Source: Mobula hypostoma (taxonomy: Eukaryota). Taken from it: 64,000 bases of DNA. The DNA is taken from positions 86,120,001-86,184,000 of the forward strand of contig NC_086108.1 of assembly GCF_963921235.1 (NCBI RefSeq), read 5' to 3'. Shown here piece by piece: positions 4,524 through 55,015 of this stretch; positions within the stretch are counted from its first letter, which is position 1, and each line of letters starts with the position of its first letter. A program made the translations under genes and the position numbers. The notes beneath the pieces were generated by a model. The model did not search any database. It was not told the DNA's origin and saw nothing but the letters and a program-made list of their open reading frames with translations.

Positions 4524-4669
4524 TATTATTTCAGATTTTTAGCATTTGTAGATTATTTGATTTTCATAGCTGATTTCAGGTTGTTGGAGACTTATTGACA
4601 CTGCAGGGGAACTTTGGATTTGCCTAACCCAGCATCTCTATATTTAATTTGCCCTACTTCCTGACTTGC

Positions 4670-4975: not shown

Positions 4976-5010
4976 CCTTCCTTTATTGGAAACAATGGAT
5001 GAAGCATCTG

Positions 5011-7363: not shown

Positions 7364-7805
7364 GGAGAGTCATAGAGCACTACAGCACAGAAACAGGCTC
7401 TTCAGCCCACCTAGTCCATGCCAAACTATTATCCTGCCTGTCTCATTGACCTGCACCAGGACCATATCCCTCCATACACCTTCCATCCATGTACTTACCC
7501 AAACTTCTCTTAAATTTGAAATCAAACTTACATCCACCTCTTCCATTAGCAGCTCGTTCCACACTCTCACCACCCTCTGAGTGAAGAAGATCCCCCCTCA
7601 TGTTCCCCTTAAACATTTCACCTTTCACATTTAACTCATGACCTCCAGCCTGTTTGTATTTACCTTATCTATGCCACTCATAATTTTGCATACAGCTATC
7701 AAATCTCCCCTCATTTTCAATACTTTAGGTAATAAAGTCCTAGTGCATTCAAACTTTCCCTATTAACTCAGGTCCTCAAGCACCAGCAACACCTTTGTAA
7801 ATTTT
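7364..7805 (-). mobile_element. CR1 LINE 3' fragment
   Basis: VRVWNELL and KGEMFKGNMRG motifs; similar to 1130-1610. Confidence 0.85.
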
Positions 7806-8689
7806 GAGGAGCTTTAATAAAGACTAAAAATTCTAAAAACATTTAGGGAACATTGTGAATTAACTTTTTGGGCTGATGATCTTTTATAATCTTTCGTTCG
7901 TGTAGCTCTGCCTTACAGCATGTAGAGGGTTAACATTTGTACGAATAAGAAGAGGAGTTGTAAAGATATGATAAGTAGCATTGAGGGTTAATGTACGAAT
8001 GAAGAGATTAAAATCAGGTGGTCACTGCCTTTTAGTTAATTAGCAATCAATCATAAGAGACTCTATCAGTAAATATGACAGGTGCGGTAATGCACCATTA
8101 AGCTGGATGCCAACTGCCGTAAAACAAGATACAGAATATGACAGTTAAAGTTGGGGCAGGGCAATATAATTCACTCTTTGACCAGTGAAGAAAGGATTTA
8201 GAGATTGTTTAGACATCAACTGGAACACAATGGAAACAAGGAGTGTGACCTCATCACCTGACAGTCAGTAATCAGGACTGAGATTGTGGAGAACTCCCAT
8301 GACTACAACAGATGTGACGGAAGCCAAGAAACCCATTTGTGAGGAACATTGATGTGGTAGCATTTGATCTCTTCTTGGTACAGTACTTAATCATATCAGT
8401 AGATCAAGTTTTGATAAGAGAATGCCTGAACATTGCAGATTTTATGCCATGCCTCTGATTATATGAAAAATTGCTGTAGTCAGTACAATGAACTGCTTTC
8501 TCCCACTTGCAAGGAAAAGACTGATGAAAATAAATATGCTTCAGTTAGACCTGAAGAATGGAGGGTGTGTGTGATTTTTTTTCTCTCTCTCTGTTCACCA
8601 AAACATACCTATCATGAGTCTCTCAGCTAATAGACAATGATTATTTTGTAATTACCTAACTAATTAAGTGCATAGGGTCACAATTTACA

Positions 8690-8830
8690 ACCATTCTGAT
8701 GAAGTATGATCAGACTGAAACACCAACTGGTTTTTTCTCTCTCTCTACAGCAGCTGGTTGATCTGCTGAATATTTTTAGCATTTTAGGTTTTTATGACAG
8801 ATTTCCGACATCTGTAGTTTTGTTCTGCCT
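8690..8830 (+). mobile_element. Old Penelope terminal-repeat relic with degenerate hammerhead motif
   Basis: CTGATGA-AGTATGATCAGACT-GAAA at 8696-8720, followed by a tail (GATCTGCTGAATATTTTTAGCATTTT..GATTTCCGACATCTGTAG) resembling the other Penelope termini. Confidence 0.55.
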
Positions 8831-9371
8831 TCAATCAAAATTTTTTTTGAATGTTTGGATTGCTGAAGTGGGAATGGCACCTTCAAATAAAGAGGGGATA
8901 TGGTCTTGAACACTGCAATATCCCTCCTTCAAGATTTACCTCCTGGACTTTGAGCTTTTTTGTGGCATTGCAACCTGATCCAAGCAACCACAGAACCTTC
9001 AGCAATGTAGAGTCAGAGAGGAGACACCAATCACACACATGCCAACCATCAGCTCTTTAAGCTGACATATGCTTTTCAGACCATGTGTAAGGCTGACAAC
9101 CTTTCATGGAAATTATTGGCTTCAGTTCACCAACTCCATTCACCCAACCCTCCTGTCTGGGATTAATGGTTGTTGAAGTGAACTAATCAGATCAGTTAGC
9201 AGATTGGATACTGCCAGCATCAACTGCTTCAGTTAAATGTGAACACTAACCAGGAGTATTAAAAGCTGAAGTGAGTATCTTAGCTGGTGATGTTTTTATT
9301 CAGTTTTTGCCCCTTAAGGAAATTATAAAGAAAGAATAGTTAATGAATCTAATTTTTAAGGATGTGTGTTT

Positions 9372-12391: not shown

Positions 12392-12531
12392 ATGAGTCCT
12401 GATGTAGGGTCTTGGCCCGAAATGTCGACTGTACCTCTTCCTAGAGATGCTGCCTGGCCTGCTGCATTCATCAGCAACTTCTATGTGTGTTGCTTGAAAT
12501 TCCAGCATCTGCAGATTTCCTTGTGTTTGCA
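12392..12531 (+). mobile_element. 140-bp Penelope terminal-repeat-only insertion with degenerate hammerhead
   Basis: 8-bp TSD GCTATATT at 12384-12391 and 12532-12539. Motif AGTC-CTGATGT-AGGGTCTTGGCCC-GAAATGTC-GACT at 12395-12430. Closely similar to the end of the Penelope element at 61857-61955. Confidence 0.85.
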
Positions 12532-14574: not shown

Positions 14575-15305
14575 CAGAGCCTTGTTGAACTATTCAATCC
14601 CCACAACTACTTTCACATTCTACTGTCTCAATTTCTGAATTTAATATATATTGAAGTAGCATTTTTGAGCTAATTTTCCAAACTTTGTGCATTACATCAA
14701 ATTGAAAGAAAATTTCCAAAGCCTGTCAACAACTTACTAAAAATTAAAAACCAAAATTGTGAGGCTGAAAAAGTATTCATTCCTTTGGTTAATATGAGAC
14801 TAACTTTCCTCTGGTGCAGTACTGTATATTGCCTGAACAATTCACCCAATTTGTGGATGTAAGAAATTAGAGGATCTTTTTAGAGCTTCTTTGCCTCAAC
14901 ACAAAGTGGTACATGTGATATAAATCTAATACAGTGAGTCAGCCAGGTAACACCATCCCTACTGTAAGGTATGGTAGAGATAGCATCATGCCATGTGGAT
15001 GCTTTTCAGCAGGAGGTACTGGAAGTCTGGTCAGGATTGATAGGAAGATGAACACTGCTAAATCCGAAGAGATTCTGTACAAAAAAAATCCTGCTGGCCT
15101 CTGCCAGGAAACTTAAACTGGGGAAAAAGTTCAATTTTCAGCCAACCCAAAGCACACTGCCAGAGCAACCACGGAGTGGCTTCAAATGAAGAAAATTGAT
15201 GTCCTTCAGTGGCCCAGTCAGAGTTCTGACTTTAACCCAACCGAATATCTCTGGCAAAACCTCAAGACTGTTGTCCACCACCACTCTCCAACTAACCTGG
15301 CATAG
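14575..15305 (+). mobile_element. Degraded, deleted Tc1 transposon
   Basis: TA-CAGAGCC start and inner AAAAGTATTCA repeat. Transposase remnant TIPTVRYGRDSIMPCGCFSAGGTGSLVRIDRKMNTAK, followed by a WPSQS-like segment. Confidence 0.8.
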
Positions 15306-25871: not shown

Positions 25872-28761
25872 TCAAACCCTGCCTCCCATATAAGCCCCCA
25901 CCTTAGATTCCTCCATATACGTGTCTAGTAGTATCTTAAACTTCACTAGTGTATCTGCCTCCACCACTGACTCAGGCAGTGCATTCCACGCACCAACCAC
26001 GCTCTGAGTAAAAAACCTTCCTCTAATATCCCCGTTGAACTTCCCACCCTTTACCTTAAAGCCATGTCCTCTTGTATTGAGCAGTGGTGCACTGGGGAAG
26101 AGGCGCTGGCTATCCACTCTATCTATTCCTCTTATTATCTTGCACACCTCTATCATGTCTCCTCTCATCTTCCTTCTCTCCAAAGAGTAAAGCCCTAGCT
26201 CCCTTAATCTCTGATCATAATGCATACTCTCTAAACCAGGCAGCATCCTGGTAAATCTCCTCTGTACCCTTTCCAATGCTTCCACATCCTTCCTATAGTG
26301 AGGTGACCAGAACTGGACACAGTACTCCAAGTATGGCCTAACCAGAATTTTATAGAGCTGCATCATTACCTTGCGACTCTTAAACTCTATCCCTCGAATT
26401 ATGAAAGCTAACGCCCCATAAGCTTTCTTAACTACCCTATCCACCTGTGAGGCAACTTTCAGGGATCTGTGGACATGTACCCTGAGATCCCTCTGCTCCT
26501 CCACACTACCAAGTATCCTGCCATTTACTTTGTACTCTGACTTGGAGTTTGTCCTTCCAAAGTGTACCACCTCACACTTCTCCGCGTTGAACTCCATCTG
26601 CCACTTCTCAGCCCACTTCTGCATCCTATCAATATCTCTCCACAATCTTTGACAATCCTCTACACTATCTACAACACCACCAACCTTTGTGTTGTCTGTA
26701 AACTTGCCAACCCACCCTTCTACCCCCACATCCAGATCGTTAATAAAAATCACGAAAAGTAGAGGTCCCAGAGCAGATCCTTGTGAGACACTACTAGTCA
26801 CAATCCTCCAATCTGAATGTACTCCCTCCACCACCACCCTGTGCCTTCTGCAGGCAAGCCAATTCTGAATCCACCTGGCCAAACTTCCCTGCATCCCATG
26901 CCTTCTAACTTTCTGAATAAGCCTATCATGTGGAACCTTGTCAAATGCCTTACTAAAATCCATATAGATCACATCCACTGCACTACCCTCATCTATATGC
27001 CTGGTCACCTCCTCAAAGAACTCTATAAGGCTTGTTAGACACGATCTGCCCTTCACAAAGCCATGCTGACGGTCCCTGATCAGACCATAATTCTCTAAAT
27101 GCCTATAGATCCTATCTCTAAGAATCTTTTCCAACAGTTTTCCCACCACAGACGTAAGGCTCACTGGTCTATAATTACCTGGACTATCCCTACTACCTTT
27201 TTTGAACAAGGGAACAACATTCGCCTCCCTCCAATACTCCGGTACCATTCCCGTGGACAACGAGGGCATAAAGATCCTAGCCAGAGGCTCAGCAATCTCT
27301 TCTCTCGTCTCGTGGAGCAGCCTGGGAATATTCCGTCAGGCCCCGGGGACTTATCTGTCCTAATGTATTTTAACAACTCCAACACCTCCTCTCCCTTAAT
27401 ATCAACATGCTCCAGAACATCAACCTCACTCATATTGTCCTCACCATCATCAAGCTCCCCCTCATTGGTGAATACCGAAGAGAAGTATTCATTAAGGACC
27501 TCGCTCACTTCCACAGCCTCCAGGCAGATCTTCCCACCTTTATCTCTAATCGGTCCTACCTTCACTCCTGTCATCCTTTTTTCCTTTATATAATTGAAGA
27601 ATGCCTTGGGGTTTTCCTTTACCCTACTTGCCAAGGCCTTCTCATGCCCGCTTCTTGCTCTTGTCAGCCCCTTCTTAAGCTCCTTTCTTGCTTCCCTATA
27701 TTCCTCAATAGACCCATCTGATCCCTGCTTCCTAAACCTCATGCATGCTGCCTTCTTCCACCTGACTAGATTTTCCACCTCACTTGTCACCCATGGTTCC
27801 TTCACCCTACCATTCTTTATCTTCCTCACCGGGACAAATTTATCCCTTACATCCCGCAAGAGATCTCTAAACATCGACCACATGTCCATAGTACATTTCC
27901 CTGCAAAAACATCATCCCAATTCACACCCGCAAGTTCTAGCCTTATAGCCTCATAATTTGCCTTTCCTCAATTAAAAATTTTCCAGTCCTCTTTGATTCT
28001 ATCCTTTTCCATAATAATTATAAAGGCCAGGGAGTGGTGGTCACTGTCCCACAGATGCTCACCACTGAGAGATCTGTGACCTGACCCGGTTCATTACCTA
28101 GTACTAGATCTAGTATGGCATTCCCCCTGGTCGGCCTGTCCACATACTGTGACAGGAATCCATCCTGGACACACTTAACAAACTCTGCCCCGTCTAAACC
28201 CTTGGAACTAATCAGGTGCCAATCAATATTAGGGAAGTTAAAGTCACCCATGATAACAACCCTGTTATTTTTGCACCTTTCCAAAATCTGCCTCCCAATC
28301 TGCTCCTCTGTATCTCTGCTGCTACCAGGGGGCCTATAGAATACCCCCAGTAGAGTAACTGCTCCCTTCCTGTTCCTGACTTCCACCCATATTGACTCAA
28401 AAGAGGATCCTGCTACATTACCCACCCTTTCTGTAGCTGTAATAGTATCCCTGACCAGTAATGCCACCCCTGCTCCCCCTTTTCCGCCCTCTCTATCCCT
28501 TTTAAAGCACTGAAATCCAGGAATATTGAGAATCCATTCCTGCCCTGGTGCCAGCCAAGTCTCTGTAATGGCCACTACATCATAATTCCATGTATGTATC
28601 CAAGCTGTCAGTTCATCACCTTTGTTCCTGATGCTTCTTGCATTGAGGTACACACATTTCAGCCCTTCTACCTTACTGTCTTTACACCGTTTATTCTGCT
28701 TCTCTTTCCTCAAAGCCTCTCTGTATGTTAGATCTGGCTTTACTCCATGCACTTCTTTCAC
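25872..28761 (-). pseudogene. CR1 ORF2 (APE endonuclease plus reverse transcriptase), frameshifted
   Basis: ORFs 28018-28761 (YLNARSIRNK, ITETWL, MGDFNFP), 27161-27925 (linker) and 25872-27269 (YMDFSKAFDKVPH, QGSALGP). The catalytic F/YADD motif reads FTDN. Confidence 0.92.
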
Positions 28762-28796
28762 TGCTCTATTGCTCTGGGTCCCATCCCCCTCGCAAA

Positions 28797-29090
28797 TTAG
28801 TTTAAACCCTCCCGAACCATGCTAACAAACCTACCTGCAAGGATATTGCTCCCCCTCGAGTTCAGGTGCAACCCATCCAATCTGTACAGGTCCCACCTTC
28901 CCCAGAAGAGATCCCAATGATCTAAAAATCTAAAACCCTGCTCCCTGCACCAACTCCTCAGCCACGCATTCAACTGCCATCTCCTCCAATTCTTACCATC
29001 ACTGTCACGTAGCACTGACAGCAATCCTGAGAACGTCACCCTTGAGGTCCTGTTCTTCAGCCTTCTGCCTAATTCCTGAAACTCGCACTT
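28797..29090 (-). pseudogene. CR1 ORF1 C-terminal SGNH/GDSL esterase domain fragment
   Basis: LNAWLRSWCREQGFRFLDHWDLFWGRWDLYRLDGLHLN contains the DxxH block. Esterase ORF1 is established for fish CR1/L2-group elements. Confidence 0.8.
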
Positions 29091-29849
29091 CCATTGAGCA
29101 GAAAGTACTAATTCCCGAAACCGTGTACCACCAGGTTCTACTCTGTTGTTACAAGTCTATTAAATAGTTCCCTAGTACCATAAGTTGGGCTCTTGACCTC
29201 ACAATCCACCTCATGATCTTCCACCTTATTTTTTTCTTACTTGCATTGCACTTTCTCTGTAGCTGTTACACTTTATTCTATATTGTTATTGTTTTCTTTT
29301 GTCCTGCCTCAGTGCACTGTGTAATGATCTGATTTATGTGAACAGTATGCAAGGAAAGTTTTTCGTTGCACCTCGGTTACATGTGGCAAGAATACAACAA
29401 TTCCATTTCCAGTTCCAATACATGTGACAACAGTAAACCAATCTGTTCTAACTAATCCATTAGGGCCTGTAGGAGGAGAAAGGCATAAAAGGAATCAAGG
29501 GACATAGAAGAGAATGGAATTGGAATTAGAAATGTGCAGTGCAGGTAAATAATAAGGTACAAGACCATATGAGGAAGATTGGGAGGCCAAGAGTCCATCT
29601 TATCACAGTCTCTAATTTCTTATAACAGTGAAGTAGAAGATTTCCTTGAGCCTGATGGTATGTACTTTTATTTCATAAGATATTGAGCTTACATAAACTA
29701 ATCAGTAATGTTAATGCAGTGAATAAAACAAGACCCTTGCCTACACTTACCCTTTTAACAAAGGTTAGCTACCTCATTCAAATGAATTGGGCCCAAGTTT
29801 GTTTGGGGTAGCATGGCAGTAAGATTAAAAAATGTTCCTGGGCTTGGTG

Positions 29850-30478
29850 TTTTTTTTTAGATTATGGGGACACGCAGTCCTCTTCTATTGTCATTTAGTA
29901 ATGCATGCATTAAGAAGTGATACAATATTCCTCCAGTGTGATGTCACAGAAACACAGGACAGACCAAGACTGAAAAACTGACAAAAACCACATATTTGTA
30001 ACATATAGTTACAACAGTGCAAGCAATACCATAATTTGATGAAGAGGCCGTGAGCACGGTAAAAAGTTCAAAGTCTCTCGAAAGTCCCACATCTCACGCA
30101 GATGGGAGAAGGAAGAACACTCTCCCTGCCGTACCCGACCACAGTCCGACTCTGAGTCGTCCGAAAACTTCGAGCTCCGACCAGCCCTCCAACACCGAGC
30201 ACCGAGCACCATCTCTGCCGAATGCTTCGACCCCAGCCCCGGTCTCCAGCAGCAGGCAAAGTCGAGGATTTTGGGGCCTTCCCTCCGGAGATACTCGATC
30301 GTACAGTAGCAGTGGCAGCGAATCAGGCATTTCAGAATTTACTCCAGATGTTCCTCCGTGCTCTCACAGCTGTCTCCATCAAATCAGAATTGTGCATGGC
30401 CCCCTATTTAACAGATATGATATCATTTCACCGGAGAGGCTACGCGCGCTGCATCGCGCCGCCATCTTCTCCTCCCTC
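29850..30478 (-). mobile_element. Young CpG-rich non-autonomous retroposon with AAGATGGCGGC head (copy F, distinct subfamily)
   Basis: Minus strand starts GGAGGAGAAGATGGCGGCGCGATGC, is CpG-rich, has no credible ORF, and ends ..GTCCCCATAATCT-A9. Confidence 0.65.
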
Positions 30479-30800
30479 TTTCCTGCGGTCAGGAAACGAA
30501 CAAGGGGTTCAAAGGGACTTCAGTTCATCCTATACTTCCACATTATATTCTTATAGAACCAACCTCTTGCCATTGTCATGGTCTTGCTCAACAGAGTTTG
30601 TTTATGTTTCTAGTGTCCTGACAATAATCACAAACCAAAGAGTTAAACCAGGTTGGAATATATTTGCAGGATGTGTCCTGAGTCACAGGTACCTGAATTT
30701 CTTCTTGCTGGAATAGTGATCCCTAAATTTTAAGACAGGCTTCTGATAGGAATCTTTCTCTTTGAATAGAATTTTGGAAAAATGGTTAGAGATAAGGTTT

Positions 30801-31046
30801 ACAACAGGAATTCTGCAGATGCTGGAAATTCAAGCAACACACATCAAAGTTGCTGGTGAACGCAGCAGGCCAAGCAGCATCTGTAGGAAGAGGTGCAGTC
30901 GACGTTTCAGGCCGAGACCCTTCGTCAGGACTAACTGAAGGAAGAGTGAGTAAGAGATTTGAAAGTTGGAAGGGGAGGGGGAGATCCAAAATGATAGGAG
31001 AAGACAGGAGGGGGAGGGATGGAGCCAAGAGCTGGACAGGTGATAG
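30801..31046 (-). mobile_element. 246-bp Penelope terminal-repeat-only insertion
   Basis: 12-bp TSD GAGATAAGGTTT at 30789-30800 and 31047-31058. Most of it is the near-identical reverse complement of 61745-61955. Confidence 0.9.
30897..30932 (-). ncRNA. Minimal type I hammerhead ribozyme motif, intact core
   Basis: Minus strand reads AGUC-CUGACGA-AGGGUCUCGGCCU-GAAAC-GUC^GACU: full CUGANGA/GAAA core, GUC triplet, stem I AGUC/GACU, stem II hairpin, loopless palindromic stem III. Confidence 0.85.
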
Positions 31047-33136
31047 GAGATAAGGTTTGGTATATTTGTATGAAGCACACAGTATAACAACTGAGAGTCT
31101 ATTCTTCAATGATCTCACTTTTCAAAATGAACACACAGCTGAAAAAGACATAACAGTCTGAGGAGGCTTTTGGAGTCTTTCTTATTTCCATTAGAATGGT
31201 ACCTATAGACACAGAAATATTCACAAATACAGATAAATGGAGATGTGCACTGAAATAATAACAATTGCAGAAATCTTCTGTATTCTGGCCATGACTTCAT
31301 ATTGTCAATATTTTCGCTAGCAACAGCAGATAAAGATTCATGAATAAAAAAGACCAAAGGCTCCTCATAATAAGGACAGAGCCATTCACCAAACTCAGAA
31401 AGCACAATATGCTTAAGTAGATAACAGCGTTTCATTTTATAGTTCAAAGGATTATACATGACTGTTCCGCAAATTTAAAACTAAAACAGAAGCAGACGGA
31501 ACTGTCTCTATTGTTGCTGCAAATTTGCTTATTTAAGGTTTGAAATATTTCTGCAGATTAAATAAGCTGCCCTCCTTCCATCTTCATAACTGACCCTGCT
31601 CTGCACCCCCAATCAAGAATTTTTAGTCCCAAATTAATTCATTATGAAATGAAATGGAAATTCTTTGTTTTCCTTTCGCACATTTGGGTCTTGGATTCCA
31701 CCCCATAACCTTCCTGGATTTTCCCAAATGTAAAAAAGAAAATGCAGCCAGCCAGCACTGCACTTCTAAGCAACGATTTGTGCTGTTTGGGTTAGGGAGT
31801 AATGTTGGAAAGGGGAGAAGGAAACAGCTGGCTAAGTTGTTGCATTATTTGTTGGAGATTTGAGTAGGAGCTGAGAAAAAGGAGAAAAGGAATTAATATA
31901 TGATCTAATATCCACTCATTCCTTCCCCTCTACTTAAGTGCTCAACAAGCAGGCCTTTGCTAGCCCTTTTTTTAAACAGCATCTGAGGAACTTAATGCCA
32001 TATCCCAATCCTGCATCTACCTGAAACCTAGCAGTAATAATTTGCTGGCAAGAGGAGTCTGTGTGTCACCTAAAACTTTTGTCAGCATATGTCCTCCTCG
32101 CTCAAAGACAGCTGATATGTAGTGTATCATTCAAAAGGATGACAGGCAAAAGTATTTAGACAGTTATTGCAAATACCCCTTAACCTGAATTATTTTGTTG
32201 TGTAGCTTGTGTATTGACCTTGTTTGAGTGTGTATTTCATTCGTCATTCGCCAGATTGATCTGTAGAACATTGCTATTCTGAAAGCCAAGATCTTTCCGT
32301 AATGGAACTGCCTCACAAATACTGTACATTAATTCCTTTTCAATCAGAGCTTTGCAAGTATTGTTTTTGAAGCTCTTAACTATATAACCAACCTCCTACC
32401 TTTATTTAACAAGTAATAGTGGCAGGAGTAGGCAATTTACTCTCTCATGCCAGGTCTGTTGTTCAGTAAGTTCCTGGAAGATCATTTACCTCAGTACTAG
32501 TTTCCCATACAAACCTCAGATTCCTTAGTTCCCTTAACGTCTAGGAATCTGTTGACCTATTGATCTTCAGAAAGGATATATTCAGTAATGAAGGCCCCAT
32601 TGTCCTTATGGACAGAAAATACTGAAAATTCTCCATCCTCTTGGTGAGAAAAGTTCCTTCTTATCGTAATCCAATTTGACTGACCCTTACTTTGAAACCG
32701 TTCTCTGGTTCTTGAGGGGGCATATCTTTCCTGAAATGACCCTGCTAAGCCCCATTTAAATTTTGCACATTTCAGTGAGGTAATTTCTAAGTCCTATGGG
32801 AAGAATTAAAAAAATCATGTACTTTGATAAGTCAATTCCTGTTATAGTTAGGAATCATCCTGTCTTTCATTGCCAATCTTGAACCACCAGTATTCACAAG
32901 AGGGTTCAGTACAGACTAAATAATCTTTTTGTCATTAACAGTGAAATTGTTACTATTCTTTGTAATCCAATATCTACTGCAACAGTCATTGGAACATACA
33001 ACTTTAACTGAACTTACTAACAATTTAAATAATTCTTATCATTTGCTGTCACAATCAATATGCCTGTTCCTCAAAATTTTTGCACTTGAGTTGTCTGTGT
33101 TTGTAAATTACTTCACAATCACTATACCCACTTTCT

Positions 33137-35307: not shown

Positions 35308-35860
35308 TAAGGAAGCTCAAACCACATCTTATGTGAATCAAAGATGATCTGGGATTCAGGATGGCTGACATTTACAGGATACCTTCTGAATGCAGAGCAG
35401 TGTATATCAGCCAGATAGGATGCACAGTGGAAACCCACACCAAGGAGCATTGGAAGTGTGTCTGCTTGGGATACCCGGAGAAATTGGCGGTAGCAGAACA
35501 TTGCATTCGCAATGGCTATAGGATTGACTTCGATGGCACGAAACTACTGTGCCATGCCAATGGCTTTTGGGACCGCCTGGTAAATGAAGCCATTGAAATG
35601 AAACTAGGGGAAAATAATTTTAACAAAGACGAAGGTCTCACTCTAAGTAAGAATTGGAATTCGATTGTAAATAAGGTGGGATAGCAGAAACATGATTGGA
35701 TGAGGACTAACCATTCAGGAGAGATGGGCGACGGGGGTATAAATACCATTAGACTAGACACGTCAAGGCATCATTCCTGATGAAGATGGCAAAGTTCGTT
35801 ATTGAAAAGTCGGTTGAAATCAATACCTGTACCCAGCTGGAAGCCTGAGAAGAGTTTATA
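35308..35860 (+). mobile_element. Penelope-like element 3' fragment (second family): GIY-YIG endonuclease plus terminal repeat with hammerhead motif
   Basis: ORF 35361-35684 reads DIYRIPSECRAVYISQIG..KEH..AVAEH..EAIEMK..NNFNKDEG. Motif CTGATGA-AGATGGCAAAGTTCGTTATT-GAAAAGTC at 35777-35811. Confidence 0.85.
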
Positions 35861-38045: not shown

Positions 38046-38486
38046 TACAGTTATGAAAAGGTTCCTTCATGATCCACCCCACATATCTCTGCAATTGTCT
38101 CCATGTTTTATATTCATCCTATTTATCTCTAGTTTGTATCTCTTGTTTATTCTGAAGTTCAGTCATTTAGGCTTCAGTGCTGAGGCCCTAAACTCCGGAA
38201 TTCTCTCCCTAACTCCATCTTTCTATCTTTATTTCCTCCTTTAAGATATGTCATTAATAGGTACCTACTTGGGTAAAATTTGATCACCTTGTTTTGTGAA
38301 TGGTCATGAGTTCTTGGGTTTGCCAGCTCTCCTATTGGCCAGATACTTCAAGACACATAGAAAAAATACCATCAATGCCATCTCTACAAAATTTTCCAAA
38401 TTCAAGCAAACTAATATAAGTGTCGTCTCACAGACCAATGTCAACTGAAGTACTGGTTACATTTAGTTGGCTAAGATAGCTGGGCC

Positions 38487-38810
38487 TGTGACTAGTGTCT
38501 TGATGAGGATTGTTTGGACCCAACTGCTGGGGTATCTGCAGCAAGGTTTGAGACACAGTATCAGACTGGATCAGAACACAAAACAAATGCTAGACAATAT
38601 TACTAGTAGGCTTACTGTACCAATGGAACAGAGTACTGAACAAATGTTCAGGTGTACCTTAAATACTCAATTTTTGGTGCCCAAAACACGATTATCAATT
38701 AATGGGAATGTTCTAAGCCCTTAAAGAGGCTGCTCAAGCTATCTGTACTCTGGACAGTTAGAGCATTTAATCTCAGAAGCTTGCATAGGGGTTGGGAGTG
38801 TCTTGTAACA
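38487..38810 (-). repeat. 3' LTR of the Gypsy element (324 bp)
   Basis: TGTGAC...GTAACA termini. Polypurine tract (minus strand GGAGGGGGTCC) abuts at 38811-38821. Homologous to 43434-43577. Confidence 0.85.
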
Positions 38811-41800
38811 GGACCCCCTCCACTACGGCTGACTCCTGATGGACCAGGTTGTTCGGAGAGGTGGTGATGGTAATCATGGATGCGAGTTGGGTCCAGGATG
38901 TCTCGTTCCAGCACCCAGCATCTTTCCTCCGGTCCGAATCCATCCCAGCCCACTAGGTATTGATGAACACCTCAAACAGTATGTGAGTGCAAAAGATTGT
39001 TCACCATGGAGACCTATTCCTCCTTTATAAACATAGGTGTCAGCGGGGCCGATGCTGGTGGGGCTAAGGGGCTGGTGCATACAGGTTTTAATTTAGAAAT
39101 GTAGAAGGTGGGAGTGATCTTCAAGGTCTTGGGAAGTTTCAAGGTGTAAGCCATCAGGTTTACTTTCCTTAGGATTTCAAAGGGTCCACTGAACTTGGGC
39201 ACCATCTTTCTAGATTCTACTTGGAGAGACAAATCATGAGTGAGCAGCCAGAATTGTTGCCCAGGCTGTAATGTGAGTCCCGGACTTCTTCTGTTTGCCT
39301 TGGTCTCTGTTCTTCGGGTAGAGAACAGCAACATCTCTCTTGCTCTCATCCATTTCTCCTTGCAGCGTTGGACAAGATCCTTTGCTGCAGGGACAACAAT
39401 CTCAGCTTTTTGTACCAGAAAGAGAGGCAGGATATAACCAAATTGGCAATCGAACTGTGACATTCCATGCACCAAATGCTGTAAAATGTTGTGGGTGATC
39501 TCTGCCCACATTCAATAGTCACACCACTCGTCAGGTCTTTCCAAGGCCAGGCATCTCAGAGTATGTTCTAATTCTTGTCTGGTCCACTCATTCTGGCCGT
39601 TGGACTGCGGGTGAAACCCAGAGGAAAGGCTTGCTGAGTTTACAGAAAGCCTTCCAGAGATGTGATAAGAATTATGGACCACAAACCGAGACAATGTCCA
39701 TCAGGAATCTGTGGACCCTGAAGACCTGATCCAGAACAATCTCGGCTATCTCCAGCATAGAAAGTAGCTTCTTCAAGGCAATGAACTTGCAGGCTTTCGA
39801 AAACTGACCAACAACCACCGTGATGACTGACTTTCTCTTGGATGGTGGGAGACCAGTGACAATGTCTATGGAGATGTATGCCCAAGGTCTCTTAAGAACT
39901 GGTAGGGGGTGGAGGAGGTTGGGGACAGGTCTCCTTGTTCCGGGCACACACTTTGCATGCCTGCATGTACTGCTAAACATCTCTTGTCATTCTGGGTCAC
40001 CAATACCTCCTCTTGATACACTCGAGTGTCCTGGCCATTCCCAGGTGTGTGGACATTCTTGACGAATTGCAGTTCCTGGGACTGGACACAACTTCGGATG
40101 AACTTGGGAGGATTGTGCTCAGGAATCCCCTCTTGTGGTGGGGCGTAGTGAACAAGAACATTGATTCCCCAATGAATTGGCACTACCACTCTGGCTTGGG
40201 GCATAATGGTGGTAGGCTGCTCCCCTCTCTCATTCTGGTTCATCAAACTGGCATGACAGGGTATAGGCTTCTGGTTCTTAGACCCCGGTTGATAGGTCAG
40301 GATGAAATTAAACCAGTTAAAAATCAAAGACCACCTGGCCTGCCTGGAATTCAGCCTCTCGGCCTCTTGAATATCGGCTAAGTTTTTATGGTCAGTCTAA
40401 ATGATAAAAGGAATCTTGGCACCTTCCACCCAGTGACGCCATTCCTCCAAAGCTAACTTAACGGCAAGAAGCTCCTGTTTCCCAATGTCATAGTTCCTCT
40501 CTGCCAGGGATAACCACCTGGAGAAGAACGCACATGAGTGCAGTTTGCTGTCCAAAGGTGATCGTTGAGATAAGATGGCACCTACTCGACGTCTGAGGTG
40601 TCCACCTCTACAATGAAGGGAAGGTCCGAGTTAGGAGAAGCCAAGGTGGGAGCTGTAGTAAACCGCTGTTTAAGCTCTGCAAAGGTTGCCTCTGCTTCAG
40701 TAGTCCAGACAAAGGGGCCCGTGGATTTCTTAGTTAGGGCCATCAGTGGAGCTGCCACTGAGCTGAAGTTCCTGATGAATGGTAGAAGTTAGCAAGCCCC
40801 AGGAATTGCTGGACCTGTTTGATATTGGATGGTGGTGGCTAGAGCTTCTGACTGCATGGGTCTTGGTAGGGTCCATCCCAAGATTACCACTAAAGATAAA
40901 ATGAAACAGTTGTCACATGAAATTCGGACTTCTCCAACTTCATGTGAAGTCCATGGTCTACTAGCTTCTTTAAAATGTCCCTGACATAAGCGATGTGCTC
41001 CTCCCTGGACTTTGAAAAGATCAGAATATCATCCAAGTAGACAAAAGCATATTTATGGAGAGTATCCCGAAGCACATCATTTATAAAGACTTAGAAAATG
41101 GCTGGAGTGTTTGCAAGATCAAAGGGCATAACCTGGTACTCATAGTGCCCTTTCAGTGTATTCAAAGCTGCTTTCCACTCATTGCCCTCCCTGATATGGA
41201 CCAGATTGTAAGAACTCCAGAGGTCTAATTTTGTGAACACCCTCACTCCTTGGAGCATCTCTAAAGCCGTATTCATAAAAGCAAAGGGGTAGCAATTCTT
41301 GGTTGTTATGTGGTTTAATCTCCTGTAATCAATACACAGCTGCAGGCTCCCGTCATTCTTTTGTAAGAAGAAGAAACCTGTGCCAGCAAATGGGGAGGAG
41401 GGGCAAATGAAGCCCATAGCAAAAGCTTCCTTTATATACTCGATGGTGCTTCTCTATGGGCCTAAGGCTGCATACAAACAACCCTGCGAAGGACAAGAAG
41501 CGGGTAGCAGGTCTATGGCATAGTTGTAGGGTTGGTGCAATGGAGGTTACGGCCTTTCCCTGGCTGAAGACTTCCTGTAAGTTCTTGTAAACAGAGGGGA
41601 TTTTGAGTGGTTTGGGTGAAGCTATCTCCTCCAGACCTTCCTTTGAGTACAACTCCTAAGTCTTTTTTTGGTAACCGGGTGATTTGACAATCTTCAGAGT
41701 CCTCTCTCAGAGCTCATAAAGTTCATCTGTGGAAACAGAGGCCAAATCAGAATCCGACTCCCTCTCTGAATCCTCGGCAACAGCAACGAGGAGTTACAGA

Positions 41801-42480
41801 GGGTTCTTGCATTCCTGGAAATAAGCTTCAAGGATTGGCGTAAAGCAGTCTTTCCCTTCCCAGAGACCTGTTGGCTGGTTTTCTTCAGCTTAGCAGCAAG
41901 TCTCCCAGACTACCCAGGCATCATCTTGGTCGTCTTCTGACTTAGGAGTTCCCTCTCTAATTCCTGTGGAATTCCAGCTAGCCTGTGTCAGGACTCGCTC
42001 TGTCCCATTGGCCAGAACTGGCTTGTCCACTCTTGAAGACTGGACTAGGTCTCCAGAAGGTTTCAGGTTATCTTGAACTGAAGCCTGCCCCCTTATAGAT
42101 CGTTGGCCACTAGAGAGACTGGGCATCAGAACACCATGCTGTAAGCAAAGCCTCATACAATGACTGGACCAAGCAACGATTCTCCCCACTCTCCAGTCCA
42201 CGGAAGGGTTATGTCGGGACAGCCAAGGGTACGTGAGGGTCAGAGATGTAGAAACTAACGTCATCCACATGATCCCTTATCCTCAGCTGCAACACCACAG
42301 CGTGTTGCTGGATCTGTCCGGAACCTAGCTCTCAGCCGTCCAAGACAGTTTCAGGTAAGGACTGGCTCAACTCTCACAGTGGTATGTTGAACCGACGGGT
42401 GGTCTCTAAATCCAGAAAATTACCTGCTGCCCCATCCACAAAAGCCGTCACCCGACTCAATGCTTACCCAGGTGAACTCT
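38811..42480 (-). pseudogene. pol: Gypsy pol (PR-RT-RNase H-IN-chromodomain), multiple frameshifts and stops
   Basis: ORF fragments 41890-42270, 41353-41652, 41091-41417, 40890-41075, 39866-40327, 39672-39980, 39512-39694, 39014-39511 and 38699-38953. Confidence 0.88.
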
Positions 42481-42499
42481 GTGTTGAGCACAAAACCAG

Positions 42500-43360
42500 G
42501 ATCCGTGGGACTGGGCGTAGTGGCTGCGGCCGTCACTGTCCTCCTTAGCAGCTCCCCAGGTGGCTGCAGCTTCAGACGTTCGGCCTACAGATGACCTGCT
42601 TCCCTGCAGTAAATGCTGCAAACTTGAATCTGAAGCCGGGACCTCTCATCAGCGGAGAGTCTAGTGCAACCGACCTGTATGGGTTCAACTGGATCTTGAG
42701 TAGGCGACGGGCTGGTCGTAGTCTGGGTTTTGGGGAGTGGAACTGCCATGCGTCGGGACTGGGCTCGGACTGGCTCTCTTTGATCTCCTGAAGTGGTCCC
42801 ACTTTCGCTCTGTCGGACAATTATTAAGATGGATGGACTGGATGATCAGAACCTCTAAGTTCTCAGCTGGCTCTCCCAAGGTGAGAGCATCCTTCAGTTC
42901 CTCTCGGAGTCTGTGGCGGTATCGTGTAGCCAAGGCCTCCCCATTCCAACTACTCTCCTGGGCCAAGGTCTGAAACTTGATTGCGTAGTTGGCCGCTAAC
43001 CACCCCTTTGTCGAATCTTTATTAGTTAGTCTGAGGTTTGGCTAACTCCCGTCAGAAGAGAGATAATGAGGGCCACCTATCCACGTTCTGAAGGAAACCG
43101 GGGCGGCTGGAGTTCAAATGCTAATGAGCATTGGACAAGGAAGCCGTAGCAAGAACCAGGGTTGCCATTGACTCTCTCCAGGGTTGGAAGATAGACTGGC
43201 TCTGCAGAGTGTCTGACAACCTCATCCGAGCGATGTTGGCTTCCTCCCTACAATAGCTGGCAAACTACTGGAGGTCGTGTATCTCCAGGTTCTGTCTGGA
43301 AATTTTCTCGCCATGACTGACCACCGCTGCCAAAAGGCTCCGATGCCCCATAGGTTCCAT
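42500..43360 (-). pseudogene. gag: Gypsy gag, disrupted
   Basis: ATG GAA CCT at 43360 just inside the 5' LTR. Retrotransposon-gag-like segment YAIKFQTLAQESSWNGEAL..LKDAL. Confidence 0.7.
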
Positions 43361-43373
43361 GTGCATGGAACCT

Positions 43374-43419
43374 GTGGCCTACTCCTGCACCTATTTTCTA
43401 TGTTTCTATGTTTCTATGT
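43374..43419 (+). mobile_element. Ultra-short CR1 3' tail insertion in the Gypsy leader
   Basis: GGCCTACTCCTGCACCTATTTTCTATGTTTCTATGTTTCTATG is the CR1 terminal arm plus (TTTCTATG)n repeat. Confidence 0.75.
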
Positions 43420-43433
43420 TGGCTCAATCGTAC

Positions 43434-43577
43434 TGTAACGAGAGTCTTGATGAGGATGATTTGGACTCAAATACTGGGACAACTGAAGCAAGGTTTGAGA
43501 GCTGGTATCAAACTGGATCACAGCACAAAACAAATGCAAGATGATATCACTAGAAGGCTTACAACTGAGCACTGAAC
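43434..43577 (-). repeat. Remnant 5' LTR of the Gypsy element
   Basis: TGTAACGAGAGTCTTGATGAGGATG.. aligns without gaps to 38487 onward for about 130 bp (about 24 mismatches by hand), then switches to CR1. Confidence 0.85.
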
Positions 43578-45904: not shown

Positions 45905-48527
45905 TATAGTCATATAGTCATACTTTATTGATCCCGGGGGAAATTGGTTTTCGTTACAGTTCCACCATAAATAATAAATAGTAATAGAACCATAAATAGT
46001 TAAATAGTAATATGTAAATTATGCCAGTAAATTATCAAATAAGTCCAGGACCAGCCTATTGGCTCAGTGTGTCTGACCCTCCAAGGAAGGAGTTGTAAAG
46101 TTTCCGGCCACAGGCAGGAATGACTTCCTATGATGCTCTGTGCTGCATCTCGGTGGAATGAGTCTCTGGCTGAATGTACTCCTGTGCCCATCCAGTACAT
46201 TATGTAGTGGATGGGAGACATTGACCAAGATGGCATGCAACTTAGACAGCATCCTCTTTTCAGATACCACCGTCAGAGAGCCCAGTTCCGTCCCCACAAC
46301 ATCACTGGCCTTACGAATAAGTTTGTTGATTCTGTTGGTGTCTGCTACCCTCAGCCTGCTGCCCCAGTGCACAACAGCAAACATGATAGCACTGGAAACC
46401 ACAGACTCATAGAACATCCTCAGCATCGTCCAGCAGATGTTAAAGGACTTCAATCTCCTCAGGAAATAGAGAGGGCTCTGACCCTTCTTGTAGATAGCCT
46501 CAGTGTTCTTTGACCAGTCCAGTTTATTGTCAATACATATCCCCAGGTGTTTGTAATCCTCCACCATGTCCACACTGACCCCCTGGATGGAAACAGGGGT
46601 CACCGGTACCTTAGTTCTTCTCAGGTCTACCACCAGCTCCTTAGTCTTTTTCACATTAAGCTGCAGATAATTCTGCTCACACCACGTGACAAAGTTTCCT
46701 ACAGTAGCCCTGTACTCGACCTCATCTCCCTTGCTGATACATCCAACTATGGCAGAGTCATCCGAAAACTTCTGAAGATGACAAGACTCTGTGCAGTAGT
46801 TGAAGTCCGAGGTGTAAATGTTGAAGAGAAAGGGAGACAAGACAGTCCCCTGTGGAGCCCCAGTGCTGCTGATCACTCTGTCTGACACATAGTGTTGCAA
46901 GCACACGTACTGTGGTCTGCCAGTCAGGTAATCAAGAATCCATGACACCAGGAAAGCATCCACCTGCATCACTGTCAGCTTCTCCCCCAGCAGAGCAGGG
47001 CAGATGGTGTTGAACGCACTGGAGAAGTCAAAAAACATGACCCTCACAGTGCTCGCTGGCTTGTCCAGGTGGGAGTAGACACGGTTCAGCGGGTAGACGA
47101 TGGCATCCTCAACTGCTAGTCGGGGCTGGTAGGCGAACTGGAGGGGATCTAAGTGTGGCCTGACCATAGGCCGGAGCAGCTCCAGAAAAAGTCTCTCCAG
47201 GGTCTTCATGATGTGGGAGGTCAATGCCACCGGTCTGTAGTCATTGAGGCCGCTGGGGCACGGCGTCTTCGGCACAGGGACGAGGCAGGACGTCTTCCAC
47301 AGCACAGGAACCCTCCGGAGCCTCAGGCTCAGGTTGAATACATGGTGAAGTACTGCACATAGCTGAGGGGCACAGGCTTTGAGCACCCTGGTACTGATAC
47401 CATCCGGTCCTGCAGCCTTGCTTGGGTTGAGATGTTTCAGCTGTCTTATCACCCGTTCAGCCGTGAAGCCCACCGTGGTGGTTTCGTGTGGGGGAGGGGT
47501 ATAGTCATGAGAGCAGGGTGGGAGAGTGGAATATGTGTTGAGTGGGGGCCGACAACAGATGGCTCATGTGGGGGATGGGCAGGGGTCACAATGTCAAATC
47601 TGTTAAAGAACAGGTTAAGTTCATTGGCCCTGTCCACACTGCCCTCAGCTCTTCTGTTGCTAGTTTGCTGGAACCCAGTGATGGTCCTCATCCCACTCCA
47701 GACCTCTCTCATGTTGTTCTGCTGGAGTTTCCACTCAAGCTTCCTCCTGTACCTGTCTTTAGCCTCCCTGATCCTGGCTTTCAGGTCCCTCTGTATTGCC
47801 CTCAGCTCCTCCCTATTTCCATCTCTAAACACCCTCTTTTTAGCGTTCAGGATGTCCTTAATGTCCTTTGTCACCCATGGCTTGTTATTTGAATAACAAG
47901 GGACAGTTCTTGTCGGAACATTGCAGTCCACACAGAAACTGATGTAATCAGTGATGCACTCTGTGAGCCCATCAATATCCTCTCCATGTGGCTCACAGAG
48001 TGCCTGCCAGTCTGTCACCTCAAAACAACCCTGGAGCGCCTCATAAGCCTCCTCCGACCATTTCCTCACTGTTCTCGAGGTTGCAGGTTTACTCTTCACC
48101 AGAGGCACGTAGTAGGGTTTTAGATGCACCAGATTGTGATCTGACCTTCCCAGTGGGGGGAGGGGAGAGGAGCTGTATGCATCCTTAACGTTAGCGTACA
48201 TCAAATCCAGAGTCCTCTCCCCTCTGGTTGTACAGCTCACATACTGCATAAAGTTGGGCAGTGTTCTAGCCATGGTAGCCTGGTTGAAGTTACCCGAGAT
48301 GGTAAAGAGGGCAGTCGGGTGCTGAGTTTGTAATCTGGCTATGACGCTGTAAATGTTGTTACACGCCGACGTCAGGTTGGCAGAGGGAGGGATGTATACA
48401 ACAACCACAATTGCATGCGAGATTTCCCTTGGCAAATAATATGGCCGGAGTCCAACAGCAAAAAGTTCAGTATCTGGGCTACAGACCCGTTCCTTGATTG
48501 TAATATGCTCAGGATTGCACCATCTGT
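45905..48527 (-). mobile_element. Young 5'-truncated Rex1/Babar LINE
   Basis: APE remnant (VVVYIPP, SGNFN, GRSDHNLVHL) and RT (DYRPVALTS, FFDFSSAFNTI, PQGTVLSP, FSDD). 3' AATAAA plus (TATGACTA)n tail at about 45905-45930. Confidence 0.92.
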
Positions 48528-48708
48528 TAAAAGTCCAGTGCGTCACTTTTTTCTGAGCTCTGTGCCCAAAGATCTCAGGTCTCTGGGCACACAGCCAGAG
48601 ATCTCCCGTCTCCAACGACACACTGATCTCCTGCAGAGGCACTGGCCTCCGATTCCCGCTTCCCCCCCCCCCCCCATCTCCAGAGCCACAAAATCTTGGT
48701 CCCCCCAA
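46064..48708 (-). pseudogene. Rex1 ORF2 (APE-RT) in two overlapping frames, with a chimeric N-terminus
   Basis: ORFs 47449-48708 (419 aa) and 46064-47473 (469 aa) are joined by a frameshift in the Pro-rich linker. The first ~60 codons lie outside the LINE. Confidence 0.85.
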
Positions 48709-50319
48709 AGGCGAGTGAAGCTCTTAGGCTGAGCCCTGGATGTGCCAAATAACGGCCATTTGTGAAACCCTGAAAGCGGGTCCTATTCCCGAAAAGAACC
48801 ATAGTCAGCATGTAACTTCAGGTCAGGGTCTTCAAGGATCCTTGAAAGGGGAAAACAGAGATATTAAAGATGGAAATAGAGCTGTTTCTGAAGATGCAAG
48901 CAAAGGAGTCACCGTTAGGTGCCATTAACCCTCCTAAGCTCCTTCCCTAGTCAGAGACTGGAAAATTGCAAAATGTCACTTCACTTTTTAAGAAAGGAGG
49001 AGGGCAGCAGAAAGGAAATTATGGTCCAGTTAGCCTGATTTCAGTGGCTGGGAGGATGTTGGAGTCAATTGTTAAAGGATGAGGTTATGGAGTACTTGGT
49101 TATACGTGTCAAGGTAGGATAAAGTGAGCATGGTTTCCTTAAGGGAAAACCTTGTTTGATGAACCTGTTGCAATTCCTTCAGGAGATCACAAGTAGGATA
49201 GATAAAGGGGATGCCGTGGATGTTGTATATTTGGACCTTTAAAAGGCTCTTGACAAGGTGCCACACATGAGGTTGCTTACCAAATTAAGAGCCATGGTAG
49301 TACAGGAAAGTTACTGGCATGGTTGGAGGATTGACTGATCGGTAGGAGGCTGAGAGTGGGAATAAAAGGATCCTTTTGTGGTTGGCCAGACACTAGTGGT
49401 GTTCCACAGGGGTCGGTGTTGGGACCTCTTCTTTTTTATGCTGTATATCGATGATTTAGATGATGGAATAGATGGCTTTGTTGCCAAGTTTCCAAATACA
49501 AAAATTGGTTGAGGGGCAGGTAGTGTTGGGGAAGCAGGCTGCAGAAGGATTTAGACAGATTGGGAGAATGGGCAAGAAATATAAAATACAAGTGGCAGAT
49601 GGAATACAGTGTCCGGAAGTGTATAGTCATCCACTTTGGTAGAAGGGATAAAAGTATGGACTATTTTATAAACAGAGTAAAAATTCAGAAATCAGAGATT
49701 CAAAAGGACTTGGGAGTCCTCGTGAATGATTTTCTGAAGGTTAATTTGTAGGTTGTGTCAGTGGTAAGCAAAGTACATGTAGATCCAGGCTAGGCTTACC
49801 CCTTCGATGTGGTATTTGGTCTAAATTCTCACTATGAAAGTACCTCAACAGGAGCTCTATTTGTCTATTGGCCTAAGGAAGCATTTAAATATTGATGAAA
49901 ATATGTCCACAATATGAATCATGACAGAACAACATCTTCTTTCCCTGATTCCATGACTCCCAGATCTTTGTGATTTCCCCTAAATTTGAACTTTTTTTTT
50001 AAAGAAATTGTTAATTTTATGGTGAAAATATAGCAAAATTACTATTGAACAATAGCTGGTGGAGACGTGAATTTTTTTGGGACTAACTGGAGAAAACAGG
50101 ATGTTTGCCACTGCTATGTCTTTGGGAGACTCCATATTATTCCTGAGCAATACAATATTTGAAGTACACACAATGTGATGGGATTTTAAACAGGAATACC
50201 ACTTTATTAGATATACTGCTTGGAAAAGACTAGGATGATAGTAAGGGCACCAGATTTGTAAGGCATTTCCAGGTGGAACGATCGCATTCCAGAAGCATCC
50301 ACTAAACATGATGTATTAT

Positions 50320-52744: not shown

Positions 52745-53928
52745 TTTTTTACCATTGAATGCCTCAACTATGATCCAACTCAATGCAAGTACGTTTCCAT
52801 ATAGCCAAGATAACCTTCAGATGTAGAAAGACCGAATACTTTGCCTTTTCAGGACATCAGGGATGTCCTCCTTCATCAAAGAACAGGGTTTCCCAATCTA
52901 CAACATTGATGCTGCCCTCACCTGCATCTCCTCCATTTCCTAGGCATCCACACTCGACCATCATCCCACTGCCTTATCAAGGTTAGAGTTCCTTTTGTCC
53001 TCACCTCACCGCTACATTAGCTTCTGCTCCCAACACATCATTCTCTGCAGCTTTTACTATTTTCAATGGGATTCTAACACAAAACGCATCTTTATGTTCC
53101 CTCCCAACTCTCCGTTTTCAGCAGTGATCATTCCCTCCATGATTCTCTTGTGCATTTGTCCATCCCCATTGGTTTCCTTCCTGGTATGTATATCTGCAAG
53201 TGACAAAAATGCTACACTTGCCCACTTATCCCCTCCCTCACCTCTATTCAGGGCCCAAACAGTCCCTCCAGGTGAGGCAATACTTCACCTGTGAATCTGC
53301 TGGGTTGTCTGCTGTATCTGGTGCTCCTGATGCAGCACCCCTCTGCACTGGTGAGATGTTCCATAAATTGGAATTCCTATTTTGGTTCCTATCTCCGTTC
53401 CCTTTCCAATATGTCGGTTCACGGCCTCCTCTTTTGGCACAATGAGGCCACTCTCAGGCTGGAGTAGCAACACCTCATATTCTGTCTAGGTAGCCTCCAA
53501 CCTGATGATATGAACACTGATTTCTCCTTCCAGTGAAGTTTTGTTTCCCCTCCCTCTTCCTCTTCTTCTATTCCCCATTCTAGCCTCTTACCACTTCTCC
53601 TCACCTGCCTATCACCTCTCTGTGGTATTGCTCCTCCTTCTGTCTCTCCCATAGTCCACTCTTCTCTCCTATGTGTCCTTCTTCCCCAACCCAATGATCA
53701 CCTCCCAGCTTCTTACCTCACCCCTCCCCCACCCACCAGGCTTCATCTATCTATCACCTTCTTATTCTGGCATCTTCCTCCTTCCTTTCTAGTCCTGATG
53801 AAAGACTTCGGCCTGAACATTGACTGTTGATTCATTTCCATAGATGCTATCTGACCTGTTGAGTTCCTCCAGTATTTTGTTTGTATAGCTCTGGATTTCC
53901 AGCATCTGCAAAATCTCTTGTGTTTAAG
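52745..53928 (+). mobile_element. Degenerate Penelope-like element (RT C-terminal region, GIY-YIG, terminal repeat)
   Basis: GPKQSLQVRQYFTCESAG and CTCAGGCTGGAGTAGCAACACCTCATATTC, homologous to 61177-61958. Degenerate hammerhead at 53791-53825. Confidence 0.85.
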
Positions 53929-54874
53929 GTAGAGTCAGGTTTTTTTAATGATGTCAATTGAGAAGCAGCAGTGTTCCAAAGTGGCCCAAAGGGATGGGGG
54001 AATGCATATGCACAGGTCACCCCAGAAAATAACTGAGTTTGATCTTAAGTCAATTTTGTTCATAAGTTGGAAAAACCACAAACACTATTTGATATGGTAA
54101 CCATTCCTCCACAGTATCATAATGAACAGCATCAAAAGCAAAAAAAAATTGATAAGAATAAACGTTTACTTAAAGTAGAGAGAGAGGAAGTGAGTTATGC
54201 CATTCATTGGAACAAACAAATGGATATAGATGAGACTTTGAATTTAATAACATTGGGGACTTAAGTCACATTTACAGGTATCTATAATTTGGCATTCATA
54301 ACTCAGAGAGACCTGCACATAGATGATAAAAATGACATGGATAGGTACAGAAAAGAGTGAAAAAATAGTGAAAGACCAATAGAATACTGCTTTTTATTCT
54401 CAGAAGACAAGAACACAAGAGACTAAAAGTTATGCTTTGATAAAGTTATGCCTGATTTAACCACATTTATAGTACAATGAGCAGATTTGAGCATTACAAC
54501 TTAGGAAGGGTATATTGACAATGAATGTAGTGCATTGATAATTTACTTCAATGCTGCTTATATTTGAAAACTTGAATTAATTAAAAGGAGTTCAAGATCT
54601 TAAATCTGCAAGATCTTAAGAGTATAAATATTGAGAAACTAATTTTTCTTGTGGCTAGTCTTAGACTGGGTGTGCAGTCTAAGGCCTGTCTTTACAAGAA
54701 CAAAGTTAGGATACATGTCTATATAGTAGAACTTAGGAAGTTTCTTCAACCATCAACAATTGGTGCTAACTTTCTCATTAATTATAAATCTGACACTGAT
54801 GAATTTTTGATAACCAAATGCCATGAGGAACTAGGGGCACATAGACAGGATTTTCTGTAGAGGCACATCTTGAG

Positions 54875-55015
54875 CAAGCACACAAAATGCTGGAGAGTAA
54901 ATCAAGCAGCAATCTATGGGAGGAAATAGGCAGTCAACATTTCGAGCTAACATCCTTCATCGGGACATGGTGAAGGGTCTCGGACTGAAACATCGTCTGT
55001 TCATACCCCTCCCAT
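54875..55015. mobile_element. Inverted pair of Penelope terminal-repeat fragments, each with a degenerate hammerhead
   Basis: Minus 54932-54966: GTCCCGATGAAGGATGTTAGCTCGAAATGTTGACT. Plus 54968-54998: TGGTGAAGGGTCTCGGACTGAAACATCGTCT. Confidence 0.7.

Follow-up and report, generated by a model that had tools for sequence, protein, structure and literature searches.

Results and Discussion

The insertion and its surroundings

The window is a 64-kb stretch of Mobula hypostoma DNA. At 30897–30932 on the minus strand it holds a minimal type I hammerhead motif, recognised from its sequence and by a descriptor match. The motif lies in a 246-bp insertion (30801–31046, minus strand), a solo, 5'-truncated 3' (pLTR) fragment that comes from a Penelope element of Neptune-like type. 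On either side of the insertion stands a perfect 12-bp direct repeat, with its left copy at 30789–30800 and its right copy at 31047–31058 (both plus strand).

The window contains several other mobile elements. A nearly intact LINE ORF2 (25872–28821, minus strand), which we take from its resemblance to be CR1-like, has AP endonuclease and RT frames of 267, 268 and 487 amino acids and many decayed relatives across the window. A second, young-looking LINE (46064–48723, minus strand) is presumably Rex1/L2-like, again by resemblance, and has open frames of 424 and 499 amino acids (RVT_1, PF09004). A decayed LTR retrotransposon of Ty3/Gypsy type (38486–43562) has 130-bp direct repeats that are 82% identical, together with RT and SH3_Tf2-1 matches. 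The remnant of a Tc1-like DNA transposon (55753–57367) has 220-bp inverted repeats and a transposase match, and a separate DDE_3 fragment lies at 15117–15302.

Host exons were sought by comparing with Pfam all 341 stop-free frames of at least 38 amino acids outside the repeat mask, a search that would miss short exons. At E≤0.01 four of the 341 frames have a match, one to a transposase and three weak. On the minus strand at 58291–58428, behind a pyrimidine tract and an AG, there is a weak Myb match (E=1.4e-4, below the cut-off); a homologue search found none for it, and it is possibly a chance match. A CpG-rich stretch at 30035–30556, 250 bp from the insertion, contains overlapping open frames of 173 and 186 amino acids with no convincing Pfam match. 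It has no second copy in the window and is possibly another repeat.

Both edges of the insertion are marked by jumps in contig depth in all four sequencing runs. The insertion is common to one related species and absent at the same site in another. In the first (organism B) both junctions are present, with 3 differences in 351 bases. In the second (organism E, run X14) a 3,640-nt contig spans the flanks 30650–30781 and 31047–31199 with 6 letters between them, as against 265 in the window; an empty site with one copy of the repeat would have 7. The flanks of organism E differ at 18 of 285 bases, about 6%. The empty site shows that the 12-mer is a true target duplication, and since the site is filled in organism B and empty in organism E the insertion dates from between those two splits. 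One shared and one empty site make this a cleanly dated copy, which is mildly useful in itself.

The carrier and its family

Over 219 bp the sequence at 30829–31047 is 90% identical to 61742–61960, a tail which sits behind the remnant of an endonuclease ORF (61157–61958). This second copy (61177–61958, plus strand) is also 5'-truncated; it comprises the C-terminus of a GIY-YIG endonuclease followed by the tail, and has an 11-bp target-site duplication. Its ORF remnant shares 90% identity with a Mobula protein and 74–84% with four Hypanus proteins, matches which point to a myliobatiform ray as the likely host. Longer relatives of the remnant contain an RT followed by a GIY-YIG domain, at or near the Pfam cut-offs (P0015, P0020). 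A cysteine linker of the form CX2-5CxxC is found as CKRNKCYTC in the protein P0001 and as CKRKCYTC in the window itself, at 59898–59940 on the minus strand. A C-terminal GIY-YIG domain following an RT with a Cys linker is a feature of Neptune elements (PMC8557442). The RT and GIY-YIG relatives and the CX3CxxC linker therefore suggest a Neptune-like Penelope element, a label taken from domain order and linker; Nematis shares the linker.

The sequence-only reading had placed the motif in a Penelope terminal repeat. The Penelope tail stands; the carrier is a solo 5'-truncated insertion, with no flanked element. No tandem arrays were found in 29500–32500, where a single copy sits between the target duplications, so that 30801–31046 lacks the tandem units, each with a type I hammerhead, of a non-LTR retrozyme. 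Scans for further copies with flank patterns gave one unrelated GC-rich match in viral contigs and none in prokaryote genomes and metagenomes.

The hammerhead motif at 30897–30932

The minus strand of 30897–30932 reads AGUC-CUGACGA-A-GGGUCUCGGCCU-GAAAC-GUC-GACU. The core of the minimal hammerhead (C3-U4-G5-A6-N7-G8-A9, G12-A13-A14-A15.1, U16.1-H17) is present, and the motif is complete at C3–A9, G12–A14, U16.1 and C17. Stem I has four Watson-Crick pairs and a G·U as fifth pair, matching the short helix I of 4–5 bp in the class. Stem II has 4 bp and a 4-nt loop and opens with G10.1·U11.1; a single unpaired A stands between A9 and 10.1, in the place of the one unpaired nucleotide (9/10.1) of minimal hammerheads. 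The cleavage triplet is GUC, with the predicted cut between 30901 and 30900. In place of helix III and its loop there is a loopless ACGU palindrome, which could pair between two copies.

The motif had been described as an intact minimal hammerhead on the minus strand. All core nucleotides, the GUC and stems I and II bear this out; the exception is the usual G10.1-C11.1 pair, which is a G·U here. The proposal that the loopless AC/GU stem III can form only between copies agrees with the structure, in which a second copy or a helper is needed. Assignment to the Penelope type is likewise supported, since the tail is shared (at 90% identity, with 61742–61960) with a copy that lies behind an endonuclease remnant, the location expected in the tail of an RT and GIY-YIG Penelope-like element. 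The motif is a real minimal hammerhead of the known Penelope class, correctly identified and ordinary, and extends by one lineage a class that has been known since 2014.

Conserved intronic hammerheads of amniotes offer another model, in which the copy at 30897 would be a domesticated host ribozyme. Its complete core and its presence in two species are in keeping with this model, yet the site is empty in a relative whose flanks differ by only about 6%, and the copy is kept no better than expected of a young insertion. Domesticated intronic ribozymes have orthologs across distant species and a full helix III, and the copy has neither; it lacks stem III and leaves no space for loop-loop contacts. 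We regard domestication as extremely improbable.

Nine motifs in the window

The full descriptor comprised the core, stems I and II of at least 3 bp each and a UH triplet. It matches the window twice, at 30897 (minus strand) and 61857 (plus strand); when the window was shuffled 300 times (block-wise, by dinucleotides), only one shuffle contained any match. Taken by itself, the bare core pattern is not significant, with 11 matches in the window as against a shuffle mean of 8.3, and 62 of the 300 shuffles reached 11. The proposed check with Rfam hammerhead models did not recover the motif: covariance models run over the window gave six weak matches at E≤10, none of them a hammerhead.

The sequence-only reading listed nine related motifs. 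All nine are derived from hammerheads, but only two fit the full descriptor and one belongs to another family: eight are from one Neptune-like Penelope family and that at 35777 is from a second, Poseidon-like family. The two that fit lie on opposite strands, 31 kb apart. The second (61857–61892, plus strand) has a GUU triplet and a U at 11.1, and sits in the copy at 61177–61958 described above. The other seven are broken, including the same-strand relatives of the 30897 motif at 24 and 28 kb.

A short copy at 12395–12531 (plus strand) starts exactly at stem I of its motif and has a likely 8-bp target-site duplication; the motif carries A9U and also C15.2U. An older-subfamily copy at 59168–59975 (minus strand) contains the CX3CxxC Cys linker and an endonuclease remnant, has an 8-bp direct repeat at its ends and carries a motif at 59223–59258 (minus strand) with G12A. 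An older, decayed copy at 52851–53925 (plus strand) runs from the RT thumb to the tail, and the motif in it (53791–53825, plus strand) carries a deletion within GAAAC, its stem II being damaged as well. At 54870–55025 two decayed tail fragments form an inverted head-to-head pair, joined at the 5' edge of the motif and lying inside an 8-bp direct repeat. Their motifs are at 54932–54967 (minus strand) and about 54968–54998 (plus strand); the 54932 motif has U4C and a broken stem II, and C3A and A6G are found in the motif at 54963. What looks like a stem I arm in the plus copy of this pair is supplied by antisense sequence of the minus copy.

A very old, decayed member of the Neptune-like family at 8696–8789 (plus strand) keeps the core pattern and has lost the cleavage triplet, so that the UH element of the descriptor is missing. 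It was found by a profile built from six window copies (nhmmer E=8e-5; E=0.005 with the 3' flank alone), for which the best match in the reversed window, used as a control, reached only E=9.7. We therefore rejected a chance match at 8696.

The Poseidon-like family is represented by a 3' end at 35337–35820 (plus strand). It consists of an endonuclease remnant (35337–35684, plus strand) and, behind it, a degenerate minimal hammerhead (about 35770–35820, plus strand) with a different, 6-bp stem II; its stem I has only 2 bp. Because the relatives of the remnant are RT proteins without an evident Cys linker, the carrier appears to be Poseidon-like, a clade label that draws on PMC8557442. End repeats of 8–11 bp flank four of the six other insertions checked; none were seen at 53791 and 35777.

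Conservation of the motif relative to its flanks

In comparison with three older-subfamily copies the motif is better conserved than the 3' flank, with identities of 29/36 against 37/63, 28/35 against 38/64 and 25/35 against 38/59 (81, 80 and 71% for the motif; 59, 59 and 64% for the flank). The pooled one-sided p is 0.003 for copies that are not independent of one another. Two younger copies have no clear excess in the motif over the flank (34/36 against 54/65, p=0.09; 31/36 against 58/65, p=0.79). Summed contig depth also peaks over the motif; in three runs, either DNA or unlabelled, it stands at 1.6 to 12 times the level of the adjacent bins. Loose contig ends with subfamily-like flanks pile up at both motif edges (30896 and 30932); this motif-edge signal is partly a product of contig placement at an 80% threshold. 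The pattern is consistent with a motif that is under selection in active lineages and decays neutrally once a copy has been inserted.

The start of several copies falls on the 5' edge of stem I or a few bases from it, and not on the cut site; this is clear for 12395 and for the inverted pair (54967/54968) and uncertain for 8696. Loose ends at 30931–30932 also fall near this edge. It is a possible hotspot of truncation or template switching, confounded by flank divergence between subfamilies. At the other end of the insertion, loose ends before 30801 and 30806 show family copies stopping at two spots 5 bases apart. Many copies near these spots continue into a short extension and then a T-rich tract, like an optional Penelope tail.

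The G·U pair at 10.1-11.1

The G10.1-C11.1 pair, which is outside the descriptor, is typical of Penelope hammerheads and highly conserved (PMC4209133). Among the window copies U is found at 11.1 in 30897 and 61857, and C in 12395, 59223 and 54932. At 30909 the share of depth with C is 20% in run X1, 29% in X5 and 20% in X18, as against 72% in X14, the run of the relative with the empty site. Similar copies in this lineage thus mostly have U (about 70–80%), whereas in that relative U is in the minority; the shares are biased toward contigs resembling the 30897 copy. Since symmetric CpG decay alone would raise U to little more than half, U at 11.1 likely marks an amplified subfamily. Private CpG decay of the 30897 copy was rejected as its origin by the C/U shares across runs.

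Stem II has a predicted energy of −2.5 kcal/mol with U and about −5.1 kcal/mol in natural C copies. Changes at 10.1-11.1 can slow minimal hammerheads; a literature search on their effect on the rate yielded no usable figure.

These shares raise the question of whether the motif need cleave at all, even in the active lineage. On this reading a young G10.1·U11.1 subfamily would have spread, with the sequence kept for protein binding, or as a promoter or reverse-transcription signal. The low C shares at 30909 and the limit on what CpG decay could produce both speak for this reading; in addition, catalytic mutants had no effect on insertion in vitro (PMC11167929) and Naiad elements have spread without canonical hammerheads (PMC8557442). 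However, the G·U still pairs, if less stably, and an A-U register could also form. Both descriptor-fitting copies have retained the catalytic core, as has the second family, and the bias in the 11.1 shares also counts against it. On this evidence we think it unlikely that cleavage is dispensable. With a highly amplified G·U subfamily it could readily be tested whether the spread of a Penelope element depends on cleavage by its hammerhead, a mildly useful prospect for a question left open in PMC8557442 and PMC11167929.

Predicted folding and cleavage

By nearest-neighbour energies, which are approximate (they handle multi-way junctions poorly and take no account of magnesium or proteins), the isolated 30897 motif folds best as a rod in which G5–G8 pair with C15.2–C17, at −10.0 kcal/mol as against −6.0 kcal/mol for the open core. 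The double hammerhead evaluates at −9.5 kcal/mol, as against −20 kcal/mol for two rods. Within the 246-nt fragment the predicted probability of the motif's own stems is near 0. Because the monomer rod would block the core and no intact same-strand partner is near, the lone copy is predicted not to cut. In published cleavage tests monomers were inactive and dimers had low activity (PMC4209133). In the Anolis element cleavage was obtained only with protein, in vitro (PMC11167929).

The motif is very probably a passenger in a 246-bp solo fragment of a Penelope tail, whose lone copy is predicted not to self-cleave; any importance the motif has would lie in active elements in tandem. Starting at the 3' end of an uncleaved element RNA, the RT and GIY-YIG endonuclease of the element would copy it into an AT-rich site, probably halting here about 115 nt beyond the motif. 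To judge from the literature, the motif likely has weak cleavage activity in tandem active elements, either as a double hammerhead in which two ACGU palindromes make up stem III or with the element's protein as chaperone. Selection in active elements would keep the motif more conserved than its flanks, and dispersed copies would then decay neutrally.

Size of the pool and the proposed cleavage of host pre-mRNA

The suggestion that the genome holds a very large dispersed pool of such motifs is supported by the nine motifs in 64 kb and by 104,541 contig pieces of one DNA run that match the 551-bp stretch around the insertion. In three runs the summed depth of the motif exceeds that of the flank by a factor of 2.7 to 9.4 × 10^5, a ratio which short overlapping contigs inflate and which is no copy number. 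Extrapolation from this one window gives about 140,000 motifs per Gb (Poisson range 64,000–267,000), of which the descriptor-fitting ones would number about 31,000 per Gb (4,000–113,000); these figures are not a measured size of the pool. A joint of 30932 to 30898 marks a rare head-to-tail duplication of the motif alone, elsewhere in the genomes (two contigs in X1 and two in X14, the X14 pair with 4 extra letters). Motif-only duplications of this kind would form close dimers naturally, and cleavage would be most likely in them.

It had further been suggested that some motifs may be able to cut host pre-mRNA if transcribed. The results do not support this: the window has no intact same-strand partner, the predicted fold blocks the core, and published activity is low or protein-dependent. 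The case for it would be a low-level trans-cleaving pool, in which element RNAs pair with dispersed intact copies in introns, perhaps helped by protein, and cut some host pre-mRNA. The supply is large, with nine motifs per 64 kb, two of them descriptor-fitting, and 4,990 element-like contig pieces occur in a run guessed to be RNA. The protein-assisted cleavage of the Anolis element in vitro (PMC11167929) also favours it. Related retrozymes are reported to be depleted from Xenopus introns (preprint 10.64898/2026.07.22.740005), which keeps host pre-mRNA cleavage weakly in play. However, the helices formed in trans would have only 4–5 bp, and the rod that blocks the core is predicted to be more stable. 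Three of the contigs listed for the run guessed to be RNA come from other copies and span the cut site, so that uncut molecules exist if the run is RNA; contigs show neither ends nor levels. Contigs of that run do not cover the flanks of the insertion, and a search for RNA records with the stretch listed none; neither result bears on expression. Loose ends at the cut site are absent among the 24 rows listed, to which 1,185 further rows belong. In Anolis no RNA-seq reads start or stop at the cleavage site (PMC11167929). We consider a trans-cleaving pool very unlikely.

Equally slight is the chance of a bolder version, in which this is a ray lineage with some ten thousand to a hundred thousand intact-core hammerheads, and the G·U swap was favoured because a protein-helped pool cuts host pre-mRNA in trans. 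If it were true, comparing the C with the U subfamilies of related rays would amount to a natural experiment on the need of Penelope elements for their ribozyme.

Comparison with known systems

The closest counterparts are the minimal hammerheads of Penelope-like elements described by Cervera and de la Peña in 2014 (PMC4209133). They share with the 30897 motif a type I core, a short helix I, a loopless helix III, a palindromic 15.2-16.2, an extra nucleotide between 9 and 10.1 and a location in the tail of the element. Like the motifs of this window they are mostly dispersed singles, with some close pairs on opposite strands. The 30897 subfamily differs from them in having G·U where G10.1-C11.1 is conserved, and its stem II has 4 bp whereas those of the Schistosoma families have 7–8 bp. 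The density in the window (nine motifs, two of them intact, per 64 kb) would extrapolate above the 4,000–9,000 reported for coelacanth and Xenopus in the same paper, which in those parts of its main text and supplement that were covered names no cartilaginous fish. A literature search that covered printed reports, with bioRxiv supplements outside its scope, found none naming this Penelope family in cartilaginous fish.

The hammerhead of the Anolis Poseidon element PAc (Frangieh et al. 2024, PMC11167929) is also a minimal motif with stems I and II in a pLTR. It shares with the present family AT-rich insertion sites and inserted copies that keep an uncut motif. The main family here differs in having a Cys linker, and is Neptune-like rather than Poseidon.

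Animal non-LTR retrozymes (preprint 10.64898/2026.07.22.740005), which have been reported in one chondrichthyan genome, resemble 30801–31046 in being short non-coding units derived from Penelope with a type I hammerhead, solo monomers being common. In contrast to these, there is no tandem array at 30801–31046, and the fragment is the tail of a protein-coding element. The 30897 motif is neither a tandem retrozyme nor a conserved domesticated intronic ribozyme; it is a member of the class of minimal hammerheads of Penelope-like elements, from which it departs in one typical pair.
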